Source: a virus (lineage: Duplodnaviria; Caudoviricetes). From it: a stretch of 64,000 bases of DNA. The notes below the pieces were generated by a model. The model worked only from the letters and a program-made list of their open reading frames with translations, did no database searches and was not told the DNA's origin. How positions within the stretch are numbered: position 1 is the first letter of the stretch; every line of letters begins with the position of its first letter. The position numbers were made by a program, and so were the translations under genes. The stretch is from positions 1-64,000 of the IMG/VR virus record IMGVR_UViG_3300035520_000781; one strand, given 5' to 3'. Positions 5,970 through 34,119 of this stretch are shown in pieces.

Positions 5970-6002
5970 ATATTTTTGTATTAAATTGGTTAGTAATGGA
6001 TG

Positions 6003-6010
6003 CAAAGATA
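6003..6010 (-). promoter_or_regulatory. Bacteroidota-type promoter -7 element
   Basis: TATCTTTG at the strand switch. Confidence 0.65.
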
Positions 6011-6215
6011 GATTAAAAAAATAATATATACAATACCTTTTCAGAAATGATTATACAAAATTTATTTTTTATTTTTTTTTTGAAATGGGTTTTATTTGTG
6101 GAGGTGAGAGACAATTATCACTCCTCCCCCGTCTTTGAATTGAAAATGGGATACCTCCCCCTGTGGTACTAGAAAGGAATCACTTTTCTCAAGCAATTGA
6201 ATTATAGCAAAAGCT

Positions 6216-6449
6216 ATGGAAACAATACTTACCCAAGCTATAATGACCTCGATAGAGGCATTAAAGCAAGTCCCAGGAACTGAACTCCTGCACATTGAAG
6301 CAACTCTAAGACAGCTCAAAGCTGACTTACAGAACCTAAACATCACTATTCCTCAGACTCTGGAAGAGTTGGTTGAGGATGCTGCTGTTGCTCATGCTGA
6401 GTATATGGCATATGGTGATTGGTATGAACCTTATGAGCCTGAGAGGTAA
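6216..6449 (+). CDS. hypothetical early protein
   Basis: 77 aa; follows a motif copy. Confidence 0.7.
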   Translation: METILTQAIMTSIEALKQVPGTELLHIEATLRQLKADLQNLNITIPQTLEELVEDAAVAHAEYMAYGDWYEPYEPER

Positions 6450-6485
6450 TCACTCTTCCATTGGTCTTGAGTATTAATTAATTAA

Positions 6486-6680
6486 ATGTTAAATAAGATG
6501 AAAAAGTTTCTAAACAAGTATGACTACATCATCATTGCAGCTCTTGCTATCATTGCTGTGCTGTCAATGTGTGGTGCTTTGCTGTCAGCTGACATGCATT
6601 TTCAAACTATTAGTGAGGGATGTCTCATAACAAGTCTTTCCTCTTTTGTATTAATGGTTGCATTGTCTGTGTTGATGTAA
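6486..6680 (+). CDS. small membrane protein
   Basis: Two hydrophobic segments. Confidence 0.65.
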   Translation: MLNKMKKFLNKYDYIIIAALAIIAVLSMCGALLSADMHFQTISEGCLITSLSSFVLMVALSVLM

Positions 6681-6694
6681 TCACTCTTCTCTTG

Positions 6695-6747
6695 TCTCTG
6701 GTTTGGTAACTCACATTGTGATGGTAGTTCGATTCTACCTCAGAGAA
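6695..6747 (+). ncRNA. tRNA-like mini-RNA (acceptor + T-arm, no D-arm or anticodon loop)
   Basis: TCTCTGG/TCAGAGA; GGTAG-TTCGATT-CTACC; internal TCAC-ATT-GTGA. Confidence 0.55.
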
Positions 6748-6800
6748 CTATGCTCAAATGGACAGGCATAATTGTCCTATAATCTAAGTCATTAAACAAA

Positions 6801-7193
6801 ATGAAACATTCAGACTTAGTGTTTCTGCTGGCTTATCTTGAGGCCACAGAACAAGAATCATTGACTCTTGAAGAGGCACTTGATTCAGTAAACAATCTCT
6901 TTGATTCCTACCATAAGGAGGATGATGAGTATCAACACTTCAATGATGAGGAATTCAAAGCTACATTCCTCCAGCGCTTCAACCAACTCAAAGAGGGAAA
7001 GTTCTCTTACTTTGAAGCTCCAATCTCTGAGGTAAGTGATGAGGAACTAATCAGATGGTACATCATGTTCTGTAATGGGGCTGATTACAGAGACCCAATC
7101 TCTCACATGGAGTACAGAATGTTCCGTAAAGAACAAGAGAACAGAGACAAAGAGTTTAATGAACAGGTTGACTACATTGACTCTGTAATCTAA
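6801..7193 (+). CDS. acidic hypothetical early protein
   Basis: 130 aa, D/E-rich. Confidence 0.75.
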   Translation: MKHSDLVFLLAYLEATEQESLTLEEALDSVNNLFDSYHKEDDEYQHFNDEEFKATFLQRFNQLKEGKFSYFEAPISEVSDEELIRWYIMFCNGADYRDPISHMEYRMFRKEQENRDKEFNEQVDYIDSVI

Positions 7194-7265
7194 TCAAAGT
7201 AATAGGAGGAATGAGTAATCACTCCTCCTATGCTACTGAGTTTAACAACATTTATCATACAACAA

Positions 7266-7559
7266 ATGGCAAACAAATTATCTGCTGCTCAAGCTGCTAT
7301 CAGAGATATGCAAGCTTGTCGCCTGAACACTGCTATGTTTCAGGGAACTGTCAGATTCTTCATCTCTCTTAATGAAGAACTGGGCATTACAAATGACAGA
7401 GTCTCCAAGAAAGTTAAGAAGGAGACTAAGACCTTCACAGAGTTTGTTGGTGGATTTTGTCACCAACAGCCTAATCTCAAACTCCAAGTTAAAGTTGTTG
7501 TCAGAGTTATTAACCCTGATGGCACAATAAGCTGTGGTGAAGACTGGGACTTTGAGTAA
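7266..7559 (+). CDS. hypothetical early protein
   Basis: Start MANKL after an A-rich leader. Confidence 0.7.
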   Translation: MANKLSAAQAAIRDMQACRLNTAMFQGTVRFFISLNEELGITNDRVSKKVKKETKTFTEFVGGFCHQQPNLKLQVKVVVRVINPDGTISCGEDWDFE

Positions 7560-7632
7560 ATTCCTAAACATAGGAGGAGAGTTAAATCACTCCTCCTATG
7601 AACTTGAAATATCTAACTAAACCCAAAACAAC

Positions 7633-7791
7633 ATGTACAAAGTAATCTATCAAAAGAAAGCAGGTTATCCTGTGCAGTCTTTTCAGACTAAGACCCTTGA
7701 TGTGCAATGCATCGAAAGAATGGCCTATTGGTACTATAAAGTAACAGTCCTTAAAGCTGGTGAAGTTATCTTTGACTACATCTTTGACTAA
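7633..7791 (+). CDS. hypothetical small protein
   Basis: Own translation MYKVIYQKKAGYPVQSF...DYIFD, lying between two motif copies. Confidence 0.6.
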   Translation: MYKVIYQKKAGYPVQSFQTKTLDVQCIERMAYWYYKVTVLKAGEVIFDYIFD

Positions 7792-7840
7792 CTAATCACT
7801 CTCTCCTCGACTTTGAAATAACCCTTAATCCCAAAACAAA

Positions 7841-8056
7841 ATGAACAGTTCTATTAAAGAAGCCAGTGAAATGTATGCAGTTGGCAGCATCTCACTAACC
7901 CAGGTGGCAGAGGTTGTCGAAAGATTCCCTCTTGCACAACAAGCTAAACTGATGGAAGAGGCTATGCACTATGCTGATTTCTTCTACCAAATGTATGAAG
8001 AATGGATGGAGAAGCAGGAGAAAAAGCACTCTTCCAGTGAGTCTGAAACTAACTAA
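7841..8056 (+). CDS. hypothetical early protein
   Basis: 71 aa ORF. Confidence 0.7.
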   Translation: MNSSIKEASEMYAVGSISLTQVAEVVERFPLAQQAKLMEEAMHYADFFYQMYEEWMEKQEKKHSSSESETN

Positions 8057-8065
8057 CTAAAAACT

Positions 8066-8314
8066 ATGGACTTCAGAGAAGTATTCTCAGTACAACAGCT
8101 GGATGCTGATTTGTATGACTATGCCTGGACAAAGTTTGACCTGGCTAATGATGAGAATGACCAAGTCGTAGAATTTGACTTTGGTCAGGAATGTACAGCA
8201 AAAGAGCTGTACAAATCTATGGAAGAACATTGGCTTGACCCCTATGCCGAGCAAATGTTTCAGTACTTTAAAAGCCATCCTCTGAGTTGCTGGAGTATGG
8301 CTGATGAGTATTAA
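8066..8314 (+). CDS. acidic hypothetical protein
   Basis: 82 aa; N-terminus similar to the 8487 ORF. Confidence 0.7.
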   Translation: MDFREVFSVQQLDADLYDYAWTKFDLANDENDQVVEFDFGQECTAKELYKSMEEHWLDPYAEQMFQYFKSHPLSCWSMADEY

Positions 8315-8486
8315 TCTCTCAAACTATCCATTATTATGGAACATGCTGTAAACAAAAACTTCTGGTGGGGAAACCCATCAGGAGTTTATGGAGAACCTTG
8401 GCCAATAAAGGACTCCACAAAAAGCTACAAAGGCATCTATTTGCCAAAAGGTGGTAAAAAACAAAGAAAACTTAACAACAAATAAC

Positions 8487-8732
8487 ATGGACTACAAAGA
8501 AACTTTTGGTGTCAGCACAGAAATTGATGGCACCTTTAGCTGTGAGTGGGAAAAGTTCAGTAAGGAAGCCGATGAGCCAGAATATCTGTGTATGGATTCA
8601 TGGAAGCACTACTTCTATATTCCTTTGGACAAAGTGCTTGAGCTCTTTAAGGCATACCACATTGACACAGAAGAAGCCCTGTTCCACTTAGCCTCTCCAA
8701 ATGGGAGATACTATGTTGAGAAGTACTACTAA
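8487..8732 (+). CDS. acidic hypothetical protein
   Basis: ATG start MDYKETFGV. Confidence 0.7.
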   Translation: MDYKETFGVSTEIDGTFSCEWEKFSKEADEPEYLCMDSWKHYFYIPLDKVLELFKAYHIDTEEALFHLASPNGRYYVEKYY

Positions 8733-23490: not shown

Positions 23491-24092
23491 AATTAACAAT
23501 AGATGAAGATTCCTTTAAAAAGGTAGGGATTTCCATCCCAGAAGCTTTAATGATTCTTTTAATAAAAACAGGTGTAACTATAAGTGACCTTATAAAAGAG
23601 ATGAAAGAAAAGCAAATTATAGTGGAGGAAAACTCTCTTATGGGAAAATCTTTACTGGTAACCCAGAGATGGAATGACCTTTGTGATAGTGCCTTACTAA
23701 ATGCAGAAGATAATATCCCAAAAGGAGAAAAACTATCTACATTGGCAAGAGCACTTATGGATTGTTTTCCAGAAGGAAGAAAAGAGGGAACTAGTCAATA
23801 TTGGAGAGGAAATATTAGAGATATTACTCTTAAATTACAAAAGTTCTTTAAACTTTATGGAAATAAATATACTGATGAACAATTGATTAATGCAACTAAA
23901 AGGTATGTAACTTCCTTTAATGGAAGGTATCAATTTATGAGAGTACTTAAATATTTTATTTGTAAAAATGAAAAGAAAGTAGACTCAGAGGGCATTAATT
24001 ATATTGAGGAAGTTTCAGACTTAGCTGCTTATATAGAAAATGAGGGGCATGAAAAGTCCCTTAAAGATGATTGGATGAGTACAATGGTATGA
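23487..24092 (+). CDS. hypothetical replication-associated protein
   Basis: 201 aa, coupled between two helicases. Confidence 0.65.
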   Translation: MKLTIDEDSFKKVGISIPEALMILLIKTGVTISDLIKEMKEKQIIVEENSLMGKSLLVTQRWNDLCDSALLNAEDNIPKGEKLSTLARALMDCFPEGRKEGTSQYWRGNIRDITLKLQKFFKLYGNKYTDEQLINATKRYVTSFNGRYQFMRVLKYFICKNEKKVDSEGINYIEEVSDLAAYIENEGHEKSLKDDWMSTMV

Positions 24093-26537
24093 GTTATTTT
24101 AATGAAGTATTATCTTATTTAAAAGATAAAAGAGAAAGAGCATTAAGTGGCCTATATAATTGTATTCCTTGGCCATTTCCAAGATTTAGATTGCTATTTC
24201 CAGGAACTCAGATGGGCAGGTATATTATATGCACTGCTAATCAAAAAATTGGTAAAACTAAATTCTGTGATTTTATTTATGTATATGAAGCAATTGACTT
24301 CATTATAAAACATCCTGAAGTTAGACTTAAAGTATTGTATTTTTGCCTTGAAGAGAGTCCAAGAAAGAAGTATATAGAATTTCTATGTCATCTTTTGTAT
24401 AGGCTTGACCATTTAATTGTTACTAACACTGATATTGAAAGTACTGATAAAGATAATCCTATATCAGAAGAAGTGCTTAATTTATTAGAAACAGAGAAGT
24501 ATCAAACTTATATTAGAAAATTCAATGAAACTGTTACTTACATTGATGACATTAGAAATCCCACGGGAATCAATAAAAGATGTAGAGAAGAAGCTTTGGA
24601 GCATGGGCATTTAAATTTTAAAACTATACAAGCACCAAACCAAGTAACAGGCAAACTTGAAGATAGAAAAGTTGTAGATACTGTTAATCCTTACACTCCA
24701 AATGATTCTGAGGAGTATAGAATTATAATTCTTGACAATGCTTCAAACTTAGCTCAAGAAAGTGGTTTAAGTAAAAGAGAAACCATTGAGAAAATGTCAA
24801 AGTATTTTATTACTTTGAGAGACCAGCTTAAATATACTATAGTGATGATCCAGCATCAGTCTCAGGACAAAGAGGGTAATGAATCATTTAAACTTAATAG
24901 AATCAAACCCACCTCAGATGGCCTTGCTGATGCAAAAACCACAACCCGAGATAGCCAACTATATCATATATTACAACTGTATTTATAGTATTGCACAAAC
25001 CAAAATTTAATATTATCTTTGCCCAGTAATTAAATAAAAAGATTATGGGAAAAACTACAGAGAAAATTACTAATTCAATGAAAGATAAACTTATATCTTT
25101 ATATGAAGAAGGTAAAATGGATACTGAAATTGCAAAGATTTTAAATGTTTCGAGGAGTGCAATATATTATTGGAGAAAACAGTTAGATTTAAAAACAAAG
25201 TTTACTTACGATAAAATATCAAAAATAAACAATAAAAAGTTTGAAGAGCTTTTTAATAAGGGATTAAGTGATAAAATAATAGCAGAGAAATTAAATATGT
25301 CTCCTGATGGAATTTATTCACATAGAATGAGATATAATTACAAAAGAGAGAATTTAAATAGAAATAAAGCTATTAAATTATCAGAATTTCAAAAACAAGT
25401 TTTAATAGGAACATTATTAGGTGATAGCTCTTTAATAAAAAGAGGAAATCAAAATACTAAAATTTCATGTGAGCATTGCATTGCTCAAAAAGAATATTGT
25501 GAATATAAAACTAAAATATTTGAAAGTTTAGGAGCAAAATGCTATTACGCTGAAAGAAAAACAGTTGATAAAAGAAATAACAAATTATATAAAAGTTACG
25601 TAATGTCTGTTCCTGCAAATCCTGAATTAAATGATTGGAAAAATTTATTTTATATAAATAAAAAGAAAGTAATTCCTTTTAATTTATTCAATAATTTTAC
25701 TGAGGTATCTCTAGCTTTTATGTATATGGATGATGGCAGTAAAACTACTAATGGATATACTATAAGTACTAACTGTTTTAATAAAGAGGAGCTATTACAA
25801 TTTAGAAAATTTTTATTTAATAAATTTAATATAGAAACTTCTTTATTTAAAAGAAATGTGCTATATATAAGAGCCATAAGTAAAAATACCTTTACTAAAT
25901 TAATTTCTCCTTACTTTTGTAATTGTATGAAATACAAATTACATAGTGTCTCGTAACTTCGTGAATCTGGGAAAACCATAGTTATTACATGGTAACCCTT
26001 ATCCAAGCTATATAGTAATATATAGAAGGAACAACGACTAGTAGATACTTTCCTAACAAGTGGTGTTGAGGAAAATGAACTACCAAGAGTGCGGAGCTAT
26101 AGCCTATATATACCAATATTTAGTGGTTATAGAAGAGATAGTCTGAACTGTATATAATACATAAAATACAGAAATACAAGATAAAGAGCTTGTATGATAA
26201 CAATTTGGCTAACATGGTGATAGGATTGTATAGTCCATTTAAGTATGGTTTAACAGAGTATGAAGGATATGATATTACTAAATTTAAGAACCATATTAGA
26301 TTTATGGAAATTCTTGAAGATAGAGATTATGGTGCCAATGGTAATATATGTCCTCTTTACTTTGATGGAGCAGTTTCTACATTTTCAGAATTGCCAAGAG
26401 CTAATGATGTACAAGCAATGCAAAGAGTATATAACTTTCTCGAAGAAAAGAAGTTAAAGAAAAGGTCTTGGACAACATTAACAACATTTAGTAATCTATT
26501 TTTATTAATAACAACAAAATTTAAGAAACATGATTGA
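24089..26537 (+). CDS. dnaB: DnaB-like replicative helicase, intron-split (exons 24089-24952 and 26208-26537)
   Basis: Walker A ANQKIGKT, IILD, IQHQ; in-frame splice restores TTRD|ANMVIGLYSP. Confidence 0.88.
24953..26207 (+). mobile_element. group I intron in dnaB
   Basis: Exon end CGAGAT pairs with IGS GTCTCG; P7 ACGACTA/TAGTC; P3 CTTCGT/GCGGAG; terminal G at 26207. Confidence 0.9.
25045..25956 (+). CDS. LAGLIDADG homing endonuclease with N-terminal HTH repeats
   Basis: VLIGTLLGDSSL and SLAFMYMDDGS; internal promoter TATCTTTG at 25014-25021. Confidence 0.92.
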   Translation: MGKTTEKITNSMKDKLISLYEEGKMDTEIAKILNVSRSAIYYWRKQLDLKTKFTYDKISKINNKKFEELFNKGLSDKIIAEKLNMSPDGIYSHRMRYNYKRENLNRNKAIKLSEFQKQVLIGTLLGDSSLIKRGNQNTKISCEHCIAQKEYCEYKTKIFESLGAKCYYAERKTVDKRNNKLYKSYVMSVPANPELNDWKNLFYINKKKVIPFNLFNNFTEVSLAFMYMDDGSKTTNGYTISTNCFNKEELLQFRKFLFNKFNIETSLFKRNVLYIRAISKNTFTKLISPYFCNCMKYKLHSVS

Positions 26538-29690: not shown

Positions 29691-30353
29691 ATGGAATCTC
29701 GTAAAATCACAATTGTGTCAACAAAGACTCAAAAGAAAAGTGTAATTAACTCAAGTGCAGAAACTCTTGCTGAATTGAAGGCTGACCTTACAGCAGCAGG
29801 TATTGACTATACTGATATGACCTTCTATGAAGGAACTTCAAAGACTGAACTGAAGACAGATGAGTCAATTCTTCCTAAAGATGTTCCTTATACCAATAGG
29901 ACTACTGGTGAAACTATTATCACTAATGAACTTGTGTTTATGTTGACTAATACTAACAAAAAGATTAAATCCGGTATGAATACTGAGCGTCAAAGAGCTT
30001 ATGAGTTTATTAAAGAGCATGACCTGCAAAAGGCTTGCTTGATTAAGTATGGTAAGAACTATACTCAATGCTCTACTGATTTTCTTAATGTACTTATCTC
30101 TGAGTATATCGAAGCTAATAAGGCACCAGAAGGTTCTTCTCTTGCATCTAATTGTTTCCAGGGTGTAGATGCAAAAGCTCGAGAGGCTATTGCTATTCTT
30201 GTAGATGAACTTTATGATAATGGTGATATTATTGGCAGCACCCTGCATAAAGTAAAGAATCTTTTGAATTACCATACTGAAGGTTCTGACCGCGATATTG
30301 ATTCATCCTATAGTGATGATGAAATTAGCAAAATGTTTGAAAATATACTTTAA
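29691..30353 (+). CDS. ubiquitin-like protein precursor (Ubl aa 1-95 plus C-terminal extension)
   Basis: Beta-grasp-like pattern RKITIV/SVIN/TLAELKADL/LVFML ending KIKSG; sits next to E2, JAB and E1 genes. Confidence 0.65.
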   Translation: MESRKITIVSTKTQKKSVINSSAETLAELKADLTAAGIDYTDMTFYEGTSKTELKTDESILPKDVPYTNRTTGETIITNELVFMLTNTNKKIKSGMNTERQRAYEFIKEHDLQKACLIKYGKNYTQCSTDFLNVLISEYIEANKAPEGSSLASNCFQGVDAKAREAIAILVDELYDNGDIIGSTLHKVKNLLNYHTEGSDRDIDSSYSDDEISKMFENIL

Positions 30354-30362
30354 TTAATTATC

Positions 30363-30401
30363 AGGGAAGAGGGAAATTAACACCCTCTTCCCTATTTTTT
30401 T
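30363..30401 (+). terminator. intrinsic terminator
   Basis: AGGGAAGAGGG/CCCTCTTCCCT followed by T7. Confidence 0.8.
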
Positions 30402-30411
30402 AATTGTTATT

Positions 30412-31434
30412 ATGGAACCAGAAAAAACTCCAGTAGATAAAGTTTATGATATATTTAGGAATTTCTATGGAGAAGAGTTTGTAGATAGAAAACCTATAGT
30501 ATGTGGGGAATATATAATAGTCTATTTCCCAAATATTACAGTAACTAATGAAAATAATAAATCCATAGATATTACAAAAGCGTTTGTTAGGGTAAAAGTT
30601 ATTAATACAGGAGAAATTGGCGGTTCTATAGAAATGATTAGAACTGAATATACTTCTTCTCAATTTAACTCGGGATATTGTTTTTCCCACAGGCCATCTG
30701 TATGTGCATCTAATTATACACAATGGAGAGAATGTTGCCTTGGCACAGGCCCAATAAGAGATACTATAATCTCCCTAAGTCATGCTCCTTCTGAAGAAAT
30801 TTGGGAATTATTTTGTTATGAATTATCTAAATATGTAACAGTAGAATCTATTGACGGAACTCCTTATATGTATTTAGAAAGAGTAGGTAATGCAAATGCA
30901 TCTAATCAAGTTTCTTTCCCAATAACTAGAAAAGAAGATATGAGTATTAATTTCTTTAATGAGGATAATAGAAATATACTAAGAAAATTCCTACCTTATA
31001 TAATAAAATTAAGACCATTTAAATTTAATTTCAATAGAGGAAGTTATAGCATAGCTATGTCTTCTTTTGAAATAACTATCACATTAAGTAACTTATTTAT
31101 TCAATGGTATAATTCTCTTCCTCAGGAAGACAGAATTCCAATAGAAAAGTTATTATCTAATTTAACAATAAGAAAGGCCTTCTTAAATCAATATGGCAAT
31201 CTATTTTATGTTTCTGATAGAGACTCTGTTATTAGTTATGAAGATTTAAATAGACCAATTCTAACTTTTAAAGGTACAGAGTATAAGTTACATATAATAG
31301 AAGATTCTCAAAGTAACTTCATCAATGTTCTTGATGAATATATAGTATTTTATATTGTTAATACAATTTTAACCGCAGTAAATTATGGACCAAACACTTC
31401 CAATCCAACTTGTGAAGACATCTACTTCATTTGA
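30412..31434 (+). CDS. prokaryotic E2-like (UBC fold) protein
   Basis: FSHRPS...ECCLGTGP (His..Cys-Leu-Gly pattern) plus gene context. Confidence 0.6.
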   Translation: MEPEKTPVDKVYDIFRNFYGEEFVDRKPIVCGEYIIVYFPNITVTNENNKSIDITKAFVRVKVINTGEIGGSIEMIRTEYTSSQFNSGYCFSHRPSVCASNYTQWRECCLGTGPIRDTIISLSHAPSEEIWELFCYELSKYVTVESIDGTPYMYLERVGNANASNQVSFPITRKEDMSINFFNEDNRNILRKFLPYIIKLRPFKFNFNRGSYSIAMSSFEITITLSNLFIQWYNSLPQEDRIPIEKLLSNLTIRKAFLNQYGNLFYVSDRDSVISYEDLNRPILTFKGTEYKLHIIEDSQSNFINVLDEYIVFYIVNTILTAVNYGPNTSNPTCEDIYFI

Positions 31435-32524
31435 TTTAATTATCCCGAGCTCAGTAGAAAGTAAAATAAGGCATCTCTGTAATAAAATATCTCAAGTAGA
31501 GTGGTCTGGTACTTTATTTTATAATTACTCAGGCTCTTATGAAAAAGGAGATTTGAAAATTACTTGTGTAGATATATTTCCTATGGATATTGGTTCTCAG
31601 GCTTATACAGAGTTTGATATGTCGCCTGATGTAATATCCTATATGACAGATAATAATCTAATTGATTGCCAATTGGGATTAATTCATTCCCATAATAGTA
31701 TGGCAACTTTCTTTTCTCAGACGGACTTAAACACTCTTAGAGATGAAGGAAAGGATAGAAATCACTTTGTATCTCTCATTGTAAATAATGAAGGTACTTA
31801 TACTGCTGCTATTACAAGAAAGATTAAAGGAAAGAAAAAGGAAATACTTGATTTTACTTATAACACTTTTAATGATGAATTAAAACACAGTAAAAGTAAT
31901 AATGAAGTAGACTGTGAGGTTATTCAGTATTCAATGCTTAATATTATCAAACAAGGAGCATCTCAATTTGATGATATTGATGCAAGACTTGCTGAAATTA
32001 AGAAGGCTAAAGCTGAAAAGGCACAGAAGATAGAAGCAGTTAGAAACATTAATCCCAATTATCTTGGTATAGAGCCTATTAAGAATAAAGACATGGGATT
32101 ATTTAATCCTAATTTATTTCCAAAATCTCCATTTAATGAAAAGAATACATTCTATAAAGAAAAGGATTTCTTTAAAGATAGTGACATTACTGTGGATGCT
32201 AAGGATGTAAAAGCTCTTGCAATGCAACTTATTACTGGCTCAATTGTAATTACTGAAAGTAATAATATTGATATGAATAATTGGGCAGCTCAGAGAATGG
32301 TTCCTCTATTTGATAAGAGATTTAATAAAGATATGCTGTTCTTTGAAAATTGGGTAGAGATGTTTGTAGAATTTCTTCTTACCTATTCTGTACCCCAAGA
32401 CTATGAAGTTATTGAAGAAAACTATATGAAAGATATGGCAGATGCAGTATATCTTACTCTAAATAAACTGCCTAAGAATGATTATTTGGAAATTATTAAA
32501 GAGAAACTACTATTATGGAATTAG
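31385..32524 (+). CDS. JAB/MPN+ metalloprotease
   Basis: EWSG...IHSHNSMATFFSQTD (E-HxH-S-xx-D). Confidence 0.9.
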   Translation: MDQTLPIQLVKTSTSFDLIIPSSVESKIRHLCNKISQVEWSGTLFYNYSGSYEKGDLKITCVDIFPMDIGSQAYTEFDMSPDVISYMTDNNLIDCQLGLIHSHNSMATFFSQTDLNTLRDEGKDRNHFVSLIVNNEGTYTAAITRKIKGKKKEILDFTYNTFNDELKHSKSNNEVDCEVIQYSMLNIIKQGASQFDDIDARLAEIKKAKAEKAQKIEAVRNINPNYLGIEPIKNKDMGLFNPNLFPKSPFNEKNTFYKEKDFFKDSDITVDAKDVKALAMQLITGSIVITESNNIDMNNWAAQRMVPLFDKRFNKDMLFFENWVEMFVEFLLTYSVPQDYEVIEENYMKDMADAVYLTLNKLPKNDYLEIIKEKLLLWN

Positions 32525-33336
32525 AAGAAACAGGACTCTCCCAAGAAGAAGCAGAACTTCTTGAGAGAACTTTGGAAGAAGCACACAGTGAAACTATTGA
32601 TATTCCTCTTAATTCTAAGTCAGTTCTTATAGATGACTCTGTATCAAGGTTTAGTTCTGCAGAATGGTTTTCTAAAATTCAACAGCAAAGAGTTATACTT
32701 GCAGGTCTTGGAGGGATAGGTAGTTATGTTGCCTTTCTCCTGAGTAGAATGAAAATAGCCCACTTAATGATGTATGATGACGATATAGTTGATGCTACTA
32801 ATATGTCAGGCCAATTATATGGGGTAAGTAGTATAGGAAAGCAAAAATGTCATGAATTAGGAAGCTTCCTTGTAGAATATTCCAGATTTTATAATTACTG
32901 TATTTACAATAGAAAATATACTGGTCATTGTAATACAGCTAATATTATGATATGTGGCTTTGATAATATGGATGCAAGAAAGACATTCTATTATAATTGG
33001 AGGGGGCACATAGGTACACTTTCACAAGGAGAAAGAGAAAATTGTTTATTCATAGATGGCAGACTTGCAGCAGAAGAATTTCAAGTTTTCTGTATTAAAG
33101 GAACTGACACATATTACATGGATAAATATGAGAAAGAATGGCTATTTTCTGATGAAGAAAGTGAACAAACTGTTTGTTCTTATAAACAAACCTCATTTTG
33201 TGCCAATATGATTGCCTCAGTGATGGTAAATTTATTTACTAATTTTGTTGCTAATCAATGTAATCCCCTTGTAGAAAGAGAACTACCCTTCTTTACCTAT
33301 TATAATGCAGAAAGAATGCTACTAAAAACTGAATAA
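32515..33336 (+). CDS. ThiF/E1-like adenylating enzyme
   Basis: AGLGGIGS, DDDIVDATNMSGQ, CGFDNMDARK, DGRL; putative catalytic TVCS. Confidence 0.92.
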   Translation: MELEETGLSQEEAELLERTLEEAHSETIDIPLNSKSVLIDDSVSRFSSAEWFSKIQQQRVILAGLGGIGSYVAFLLSRMKIAHLMMYDDDIVDATNMSGQLYGVSSIGKQKCHELGSFLVEYSRFYNYCIYNRKYTGHCNTANIMICGFDNMDARKTFYYNWRGHIGTLSQGERENCLFIDGRLAAEEFQVFCIKGTDTYYMDKYEKEWLFSDEESEQTVCSYKQTSFCANMIASVMVNLFTNFVANQCNPLVERELPFFTYYNAERMLLKTE

Positions 33337-33338
33337 TT

Positions 33339-34100
33339 ATGGCATTAGATGTATATCTTAAAAAGTATTTATATAATCCTTCTGGTTATTGCCCTAATGT
33401 TCCACTACTTCCATGTTATGAACATCATAATGTCTTTAATAGGTTTTTAAGTATTATGGCCAGTAAAGAAGATGAAATATTTATCCCAGTAATAAATAAG
33501 TATGCCTTCTTTAATAAGATATACCAAGGATTGATTGAAAAAAATAAAGAAACTATTACTATCGCTTGCCCACTTCCCATTACTGGTTCAGGGGAGAAAT
33601 GTACAGGAACCAGTATTATTGAATATCTATTAAAAACAAGAGTTAATAAAGGCCTCACTGAAGTTACTACAAAAAGAGGAGACGTATTTTATGGAGGTGC
33701 TGGAATTTTACTTAATAGTCGTAAAGATATTTTAATAATATTTGGATATACAAGTAAAATAGTAAATAATAAAATTAAATTAACTGGAATAAAGGGATAT
33801 ATATCTCCATTGGTATTTTTAAGTAATGATATAGTATGCAAAGCAATTATTAAAAATGTTATTCCTTGTGTATCTACTAATCTTATAGCCACTCATAAAA
33901 GTAATTTCCCTTATGGAAAATATGATGCAGATGAAATAGGCACTTATGAAACTCCCAAGCTATTAATTCAAGACTTATCTTATTTAACTTCAAGTCCTAT
34001 TGTTCCTAATAACTATCCAGTTAATTTTACAGATAGAAATGCTAAAATATGGGATTTTATAGATAACTATAATATTCCTGAAAAATTCTTGGAGATTTAA
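33339..34100 (+). CDS. hypothetical protein coupled to the E1 gene
   Basis: 253 aa; starts 2 nt after the E1 stop. Confidence 0.75.
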   Translation: MALDVYLKKYLYNPSGYCPNVPLLPCYEHHNVFNRFLSIMASKEDEIFIPVINKYAFFNKIYQGLIEKNKETITIACPLPITGSGEKCTGTSIIEYLLKTRVNKGLTEVTTKRGDVFYGGAGILLNSRKDILIIFGYTSKIVNNKIKLTGIKGYISPLVFLSNDIVCKAIIKNVIPCVSTNLIATHKSNFPYGKYDADEIGTYETPKLLIQDLSYLTSSPIVPNNYPVNFTDRNAKIWDFIDNYNIPEKFLEI

Positions 34101-34111
34101 ATTTTTATTAT

Positions 34112-34119
34112 TATCTTTG
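34112..34119 (+). promoter_or_regulatory. Bacteroidota-type promoter
   Basis: TATCTTTG. Confidence 0.65.

Follow-up and report, generated by a model that had tools for sequence, protein, structure and literature searches.

A putative ubiquitin-like conjugation cassette with a passenger-fused modifier in the replication module of crAss-like phages

The current analysis describes a conserved gene cassette within the replication module of a crAss-like (Steigviridae-type) phage. The cassette begins with a gene fusing a ubiquitin-like (Ubl) domain to a second, helical protein and continues, past a strong terminator-like hairpin, with genes encoding an E2-like protein, a JAB/MPN+ metalloprotease, an E1-like adenylating enzyme, and a 253-aa protein. 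We put the probability at about two in three that these genes constitute a phage-encoded, Bil-like Ubl system, in which the tag is made as a passenger-fused precursor, matured by the adjacent JAB, and set in its stoichiometry by the internal terminator. All positions refer to the window, i.e., the whole 64-kb stretch of DNA that was analyzed, which derives from a virus record of 92,997 bp. The features under discussion are collected in Table 1.

Table 1. Features of the Ubl cassette, in order of their positions in the window
Feature	Position	Strand	Basis
Ubl-passenger fusion ORF	29691-30353	+	220 aa
Ubiquitin-like beta-grasp domain, aa 1-95	29691..29975	+	AF2 model, fold matches, invariant G95
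KKIKSG motif, K90-G95, proposed processing/activation site	29958..29975	+	conservation peak
Passenger, aa 96-220	29976..30353	+	conservation, model, split and solo forms
Intrinsic terminator-like hairpin and U-tract, proposed internal attenuator	30363..30401	+	folding energy, conserved position
E2-like protein, UBC/UEV/RWD-like N-terminal domain and C-terminal domain	30412..31434	+	AF2/VIA fold match, invariant H93 and C109
JAB/MPN+ metalloprotease with ~230-aa C-terminal domain	31385..32524	+	Pfam Prok-JAB, PADLOC JAB, JAMM motif
E1-like ThiF-family adenylating enzyme	32515..33336	+	Pfam ThiF, PADLOC, PDB profiles
253-aa conserved protein, crAss001 gp75 counterpart, closes the cassette	33339..34100	+	synteny

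When the distribution of the cassette is examined, it is evident that the window is one member of a large family. A Megablast search against phage records yielded no nucleotide match, while tblastn detected the fusion protein in 45 phage records, including those of crAss001, DAC15/17, cr128_1, Kehishuvirus, and Kolpuevirus, and three of the four records examined belong to the Crassvirales, family Steigviridae. The fusion family is large, with 5,429 clusters when grouped at 90% identity and 791 representatives when grouped at 50%. In crAss001, the gene order is primase (gp80), fusion (gp79), gp78, gp77, gp76, gp75, and then UDG, with gp79 and gp78 labeled as hypothetical proteins, gp77 as "metalloprotease domain", and gp76 as "ThiF". 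The order primase-Ubl-E2-JAB-E1 is likewise constant in every IMG/VR locus having sufficient flanking sequence, and the cassette of crAss-like genomes sits between the primase and UDG/RNR genes, with an anaerobic RNR-like gene downstream and UDG in relatives. Elsewhere in the window, a DnaB-like helicase frame (24071-24988, 25045-25956, and 26190-26537) is apparently broken up by an ORF of 303 aa that shows LAGLIDADG-like motifs, and this ORF has its own promoter-like TTATCTTTGC site at 25014.

The key features of the fusion protein were derived from an AlphaFold2 (AF2) model built on 66 diverse members of the family, together with the alignment of these same members. The model has a mean pLDDT of 87.6, exceeding 90 across residues 1-86, and it places a strand-strand-helix-strand arrangement plus further strands over residues 4-86, the last strand spanning 81-86, followed by an unstructured tail to approximately residue 97. 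According to this model, the N-terminal 95 aa of the fusion is a beta-grasp domain. The top Foldseek and VIA matches to residues 1-~92 all have the ubiquitin fold (TINCR Ubl, DIX, FAT10, ubiquitin, SUMO, MoaD, and BilA), with moderate scores forming a uniform list (Z 5.8-7.3, rmsd ~2.2 Å over ~72 residues), and the BilA chain of E. aridi (8tyz_B) aligns to residues 2-95 of the model. Nine residues separate the last strand from G95, a longer tail than that of ubiquitin, and G95 itself lies in a lower-confidence linker of the model. This glycine is nonetheless invariant in all 66 homologues, which together with the model and the fold matches supports the reading, made in an earlier note, of the N-terminal region as a Ubl and of Gly95 as its candidate conjugating residue.

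The same note had also anticipated that conservation would peak at KxKSG and drop thereafter. The peak is evident, as block 90-95 (KKIxSG) is the best conserved of the fusion at 3.71 bits per column, and so is an immediate collapse after G95, with a value of 1.31 bits placing block 96-99 among the least conserved and the distance from G95 to the next invariant residue, R100, varying between 2 and 7 residues as an indel hot spot. The drop is not lasting, however, since conservation recovers to ~2.5 bits over residues 100-135, is low across a linker, and rises once more at an acidic tail (204-216). This recovery marks the extension as a second protein in its own right rather than a disposable propeptide. 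Among relatives, the residue following G95 is mostly Ala, and SG is found in 248 of the 280 that were fetched; most of the fetched sequences lacking it are probably fragments.

In the window, S94-G95-M96 is encoded by TCC GGT ATG at 29970-29978, the GGT codon of G95 occupying 29973-29975. As originally claimed, G95 is internal and followed by a helical, acidic extension of 125 aa, each feature lying at the position given for it. The extension (aa 96-220) has a pI of 4.69, with 22 D+E versus 13 K+R, most of its acidity being contributed by residues 141-220 (pI 4.35), and it is all-helical in the AF2 model (helices at 98-109, 113-120, 129-143, 160-176, 182-191, and 209-215). In this passenger, a conserved module of three helices (100-135) is connected by a variable linker to a helical part, and an acidic tail with the pattern SxYSDxEIxxMF comes last. 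The actual C-terminus of the fusion is variable among relatives and is not Gly. For residues 100-135, a SAP/HeH identity read by eye was dropped, as profile searches of PDB sequences, Pfam, and the ESM Atlas returned nothing usable. Two cysteines of this module, C116 and C127 (window 30036-30071), are invariant in close relatives, whereas certain distant members, P0236 for example, lack them. Separately, the passenger of three homologues of 321-337 aa (P0231, P0236, and P0243) contains an inserted C-terminal domain of ribosomal protein L7/L12 (PF00542, E = 1e-16 to 2e-10), a domain that recruits translational GTPases; no close L12-bearing locus turned up when IMG/VR was scanned with P0243. The codon usage of the fusion gene is the richest in its neighborhood, with a GC3 of 0.264, AAG at 11 of 20 Lys codons, and no TTA, although few codons underlie this signal.

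Further insight into the relationship between the two halves of the fusion comes from relatives in which they are separate. Twenty-two cluster representatives consist of a 91-aa solo Ubl ending in KKI[KR]SG plus two residues (IC, IY, KF, KC, or IF); these forms are 59-98% identical to one another, and several are located on contigs of ~100 kb. At locus L012, the fusion gene is interrupted by a NUMOD4-HNH_3-NUMOD1 endonuclease ORF, beyond which the passenger half continues from an ATG of its own. A group I intron was considered for this split and rejected, as an Rfam scan of L012 5900-7400 was negative and only ~20-30 nt flank the endonuclease ORF, both of which point to a free-standing homing endonuclease and a truly split gene. 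Decay of the endonuclease is seen at L065 and L074, where both the Ubl and passenger halves are intact, the passenger being a separate ORF in all three of these loci. Both halves of the split forms are under purifying selection, with dN/dS of ~0.09 for the Ubl and ~0.43 for the passenger. At a fourth locus, L107, on a crAss-like contig, a 93-aa passenger module stands alone beside the primase (6001-6282) and is followed by a 772-aa protein (6364-8682) in place of the E2-JAB-E1 genes. Genes for the Ubl, E2-like protein, JAB, and E1 are all absent from the 6 kb downstream of this solo passenger, and a Ubl or E1 match was not found anywhere in the record (71.5 kb, ~70% complete).

The split forms and the passenger-only form thus argue for two separable proteins joined at G95, and the 91-aa forms indicate that the Ubl is viable as a free protein whose end lies just past this glycine. 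Furthermore, a Met located two residues ahead of R100 is shared by 90% or more of the fusions and aligns with the start Met of the L107 solo passenger, suggesting that the fusion was born by the joining of two genes. This Met could also permit internal initiation, which would provide another route to the passenger. As a separate observation, free-standing HNH (NUMOD4/HNH_3) homing endonuclease genes have inserted at several gene boundaries of the module in relatives (L012:5428-5982, L012:6291-6803, and L021:6714-7253), namely the gap between the primase and Ubl genes, the Ubl-passenger junction, and the interval between the fusion gene and the terminator.

A strong intrinsic terminator had been proposed to separate the fusion gene from the E2-like gene, and this proposal is upheld both by the energetics of the structure and by its retention in relatives. 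The hairpin, which starts nine bases past the fusion stop codon, has a perfect 11-bp stem at 30363-30393 (AGGGAAGAGGG / CCCTCTTCCCT) with a 9-nt loop, followed by A + U7 at 30394-30401, so that the U-tract lies 10 nt ahead of the E2-like ORF (start 30412). Its folding energy is -22.1 kcal/mol (z = -4.5), and none of 200 shuffled sequences folded equally well. A consensus terminator scan missed the hairpin because its 9-nt loop exceeds the 8-nt limit of the scan; a separate scan counted approximately five strong hairpin + T-run sites on the + strand of the window, this one included. Among relatives, a hairpin and T-run lie directly 3' of the fusion gene in 77 of 81 loci, and 3' of the passenger half in split loci. 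In the other four, the terminator comes after an endonuclease gene that has inserted there or after a frameshifted gene end, and all 81 loci therefore keep one before the E2-like gene. At least seven unrelated stem sequences occur among these loci, and since unrelated stems are found at a single position, it is the structure that is conserved.

No match to TAnnTTTG, a Bacteroidota-type promoter motif, occurs between 28304 and 33240. Promoter-like TTATCTTTGC sites are found just upstream of genes at 25014, 34112, and 35077, and this sequence is probably the -7 element of the middle-gene promoters of this phage. With the terminator upstream and no TAnnTTTG over that interval, the enzyme genes would lie between a putative attenuator and the next promoter. 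It is reasonable to expect from this arrangement that the tag would be produced in excess over the enzymes. The published RNA-seq study of crAss001 mentions neither gp76-79 nor terminators (PMC8375218).

Among the enzymes, the E2-like protein (340 aa; AF2 mean pLDDT 88.2) has no sequence match to any family, and a Foldseek search with its whole model gave no significant match. In the wide VIA comparison, the top 50 entries are mostly E2, UEV, and RWD chains aligned over residues 1-~160, and the list includes a Citrobacter BubCD-BubB-BubA entry and Cap2. C109 is invariant within CxGxGPI, as is the S92-H93 pair 16 residues upstream, and the canonical HPN motif is absent. The label of E2-like assigned previously depends on the invariant Cys and on the fold match, which is modest, with Z values of only 4-6. 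In length, the protein ranges from 340 aa here and ~360 aa in L080/L084 to 430-470 aa in most other relatives (L005-L079 compared), the larger size being due to an extra N-terminal region of ~100 aa.

The 379-aa JAB protein carries the motif E39...H101-S-H103-x7-S111-x2-D114, the residues of which are invariant in 13 relatives. By HMM, its membership in the JAB family is marginal, as the Pfam Prok-JAB score of 20.3 bits falls below the cut-off of 25; the PADLOC JAB model matches at E = 7.5e-4, and there is a weak profile match to archaeal JAMM1. The 273-aa E1 scores 54.3 bits against Pfam ThiF (cut-off 28.1) and matches the PADLOC Cap2 E1-E2 models and, more weakly, BilD (E = 3.8e-6), with PDB profile matches to MccB, UBA5, Cap2, UBA6, and NAE1. 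Its G64-x-G66-G67-I68-G69 (GLGGIG), D150, and C221 are invariant. C221 lies in an invariant TxCSYKQT and is a candidate for the catalytic Cys, having been placed by eye at the expected crossover loop. One segment, N96-x-S98-G99-Q100 (window 32800-32814), is invariant in 14 of 14 aligned relatives and positions G99 opposite an Arg of MccB; where ThiF, MoeB, and MccB carry the Arg of NLxRQ, the phage E1 has Gly, and its adenylation chemistry may differ as a result. The 253-aa protein is without a Pfam, PHROG, or PADLOC match. It has a conserved YGGxG, and its ESM-feature neighbors are DUF169 and GGGtGRT, a score of 0.93 that serves as a lead only. The gene is syntenic in most loci and is bounded downstream by the promoter-like TTATCTTTGC at 34112; its product might act as an E3-like adaptor or itself be a target.

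The closest functional parallel is found in the bacterial Bil systems (BilABCD), which have the same four parts in the same order, Ubl, E2, JAB, and E1. The BilC JAB cleaves E. aridi BilA at G97|A98 and likewise cuts BilA when it is fused to GFP (10.1101/2023.09.26.559546); at the site proposed here, the phage family mostly has G|A as well. Despite this correspondence, the PADLOC HMMs for BilA, BilB, and BilC found no match among 66, 52, and 13 family members, respectively, and only the E1 is related to Bil/Cap2 by sequence, which suggests that the cassette works like Bil without being a member of the Bil family. Other features are distinct as well. Bil is a bacterial defense locus, whereas the phage cassette belongs to the replication module of a lytic-type crAss-like phage; type II BilA has at most nine residues after its Gly, whereas the phage fusion has a conserved 125-aa protein there; and the phage cassette further has a conserved fifth gene as well as a terminator within it.

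Another parallel exists within phages themselves. TAPI of lambda/T1 is likewise a phage Ubl linked to a small C-terminal domain and encoded beside a JAB peptidase, and the JAB domain of TAPK was predicted in 2006 to cut TAPI at the last Gly of the Ubl (PMC1779556). JAB-mediated maturation of Ubls thus has precedents, demonstrated in Bil and predicted for lambda TAPI, and the system described here is not categorically new. However, TAPI belongs to a tail-assembly module and has no E1/E2 partner, whereas the present fusion adjoins a primase and a full E1/E2 set, from which conjugation would be expected rather than mere release. In eukaryotes, Ub-eL40 and Ub-eS31 are N-terminal ubiquitin fusions that are cut after the C-terminal Gly of ubiquitin to yield an equimolar second functional protein. 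Those fusions depend upon a cysteine DUB instead of the JAMM protease proposed here, and the passenger in the window is not ribosomal, although some relatives of the passenger do carry the ribosomal L7/L12 C-terminal domain. Among archaea, the Ub operon of Caldiarchaeum encodes an Rpn11-type JAMM that both matures the Ub precursor and deconjugates, alongside E1 and E2 (PMC6043591), as well as a RING E3 (PMC5654768). The phage proteins are not close to these in sequence, the weak JAMM1 match being the only one. We know of no passenger protein fused to Caldiarchaeum Ub.

Based upon these features, several steps can be proposed. The 220-aa product would be a precursor, which the JAMM protease would cut after G95 (KKIKSG|M), freeing a Ubl of ~10.5 kDa with a C-terminal Gly along with an equimolar amount of a ~14.2-kDa passenger. 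The E1 would then adenylate G95 and load the Ubl onto C221, after which it would be handed to C109 of the E2-like protein and subsequently onto target lysines, with the JAB presumably also able to reverse conjugation. As the fusion gene would end its transcription unit, only read-through past the terminator would reach the enzyme genes, and the outcome would be much tag and little enzyme. Cleavage at G95, thioester transfer, conjugation, and the expression ratio are steps that we infer from the arrangement and conservation of the genes.

Three other explanations deserve consideration, each of which we regard as improbable. The one with the best prospects, though still unlikely, is that the fusion is never cleaved and that its beta-grasp domain is a permanent adaptor tethering the passenger, as in Rad23, UBX, or lambda TAPI-like factors, with KKIxSG acting as a binding or hinge motif. 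Many beta-grasp domains are indeed unconjugated, DIX, UBX, and PB1 score as high as ubiquitin, the passenger is conserved and encoded beside replication genes, and a simple linker joins the two domains in the model. A permanent adaptor would, however, leave the co-inherited E1, Cys-bearing E2-like protein, and JAB without a substrate C-terminus, as the actual C-terminus of the fusion is variable and not Gly. It is also at odds with the diversified clade having a separate 91-aa Ubl that ends just past G95, as well as with L107, in which the passenger occurs alone and the Ubl and its three enzymes are missing together from the following 6 kb, with no Ubl or E1 match record-wide.

Somewhat more doubtful is an anti-immunity role, in which the enzymes would mainly remove or divert host conjugates of the Bil or CBASS type and the phage Ubl would be a decoy or inhibitor. 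The resemblance of the E1 to the Cap2 E1 domain and BilD, as well as that of the JAB to CBASS-type JAB models, would fit such a role, and phage proteins are reported to be tagged by host Bil systems (10.1101/2023.09.04.556158). Nevertheless, a decoy needs no full E1/E2/JAB set with conserved catalytic residues, and the cassette is fixed in the replication module of every sampled relative that has the Ubl, unlike a variable anti-defense island. The least probable of the three, by a small degree, is a pathway resembling ThiS/MoaD-ThiF or MccB/PaaA, with the Ubl as a sulfur carrier or as a substrate of peptide modification. G95 would then be adenylated and thiocarboxylated, or given another modification, to serve nucleotide or cofactor chemistry instead of being attached to proteins, and the JAB would merely expose the Gly. 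Such a pathway could account for MccB, UBA5, TcdA, PaaA, and ThiF being the top sequence matches of the E1, for MoaD among the fold matches of the Ubl, and for the position of the cassette amid nucleotide-metabolism genes (UDG in relatives and the anaerobic RNR-like gene downstream), and sulfur-transfer operons combining JAB with ThiS/MoaD-like genes are known (PMC1779556). Against it, the E1 is without a rhodanese domain, the cassette is without a sulfurtransferase or biosynthetic partner gene, and known sulfur-carrier pathways do not include a UBC-fold protein bearing an invariant Cys. A conjugation system built around a cleavable precursor is accordingly the reading that we favor.

A broader proposal can be made as well, albeit tentatively and at slightly less than even odds: crAss-like phages would carry a complete Ubl conjugation system whose tag is fused to a replication-associated passenger, much as eukaryotes produce ubiquitin joined to ribosomal proteins, and tagging during genome replication would remodel host or phage proteins, with attenuation ensuring much tag and little enzyme. 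We did not find the cassette described for crAss-like phages in the literature, an absence that is no proof that it is unpublished. If the proposal is true, this would be, as far as we found, the first complete E1-E2-DUB-Ubl cascade from a virus of bacteria. To our knowledge, bacterial Ubl conjugation has so far been studied as a host defense against phages, in the form of Bil and type II CBASS. Here, it is the phage side that appears to own a Ubl system, one that forms a fixed part of the replication module across a large and abundant clade, crAss-like phages being among the commonest viruses of the human gut. Since the same genes are present in crAss001 and DAC15, both of which are in culture, the idea is directly testable, and the natural split and passenger-only variants already serve as controls. 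If confirmed, the system would raise the questions of what the phage tags while it replicates, of whether the fusion makes the output of tag and passenger obligatorily 1:1, and of whether viral Ubl systems have a bearing on how Ub-fusion precursors originated.
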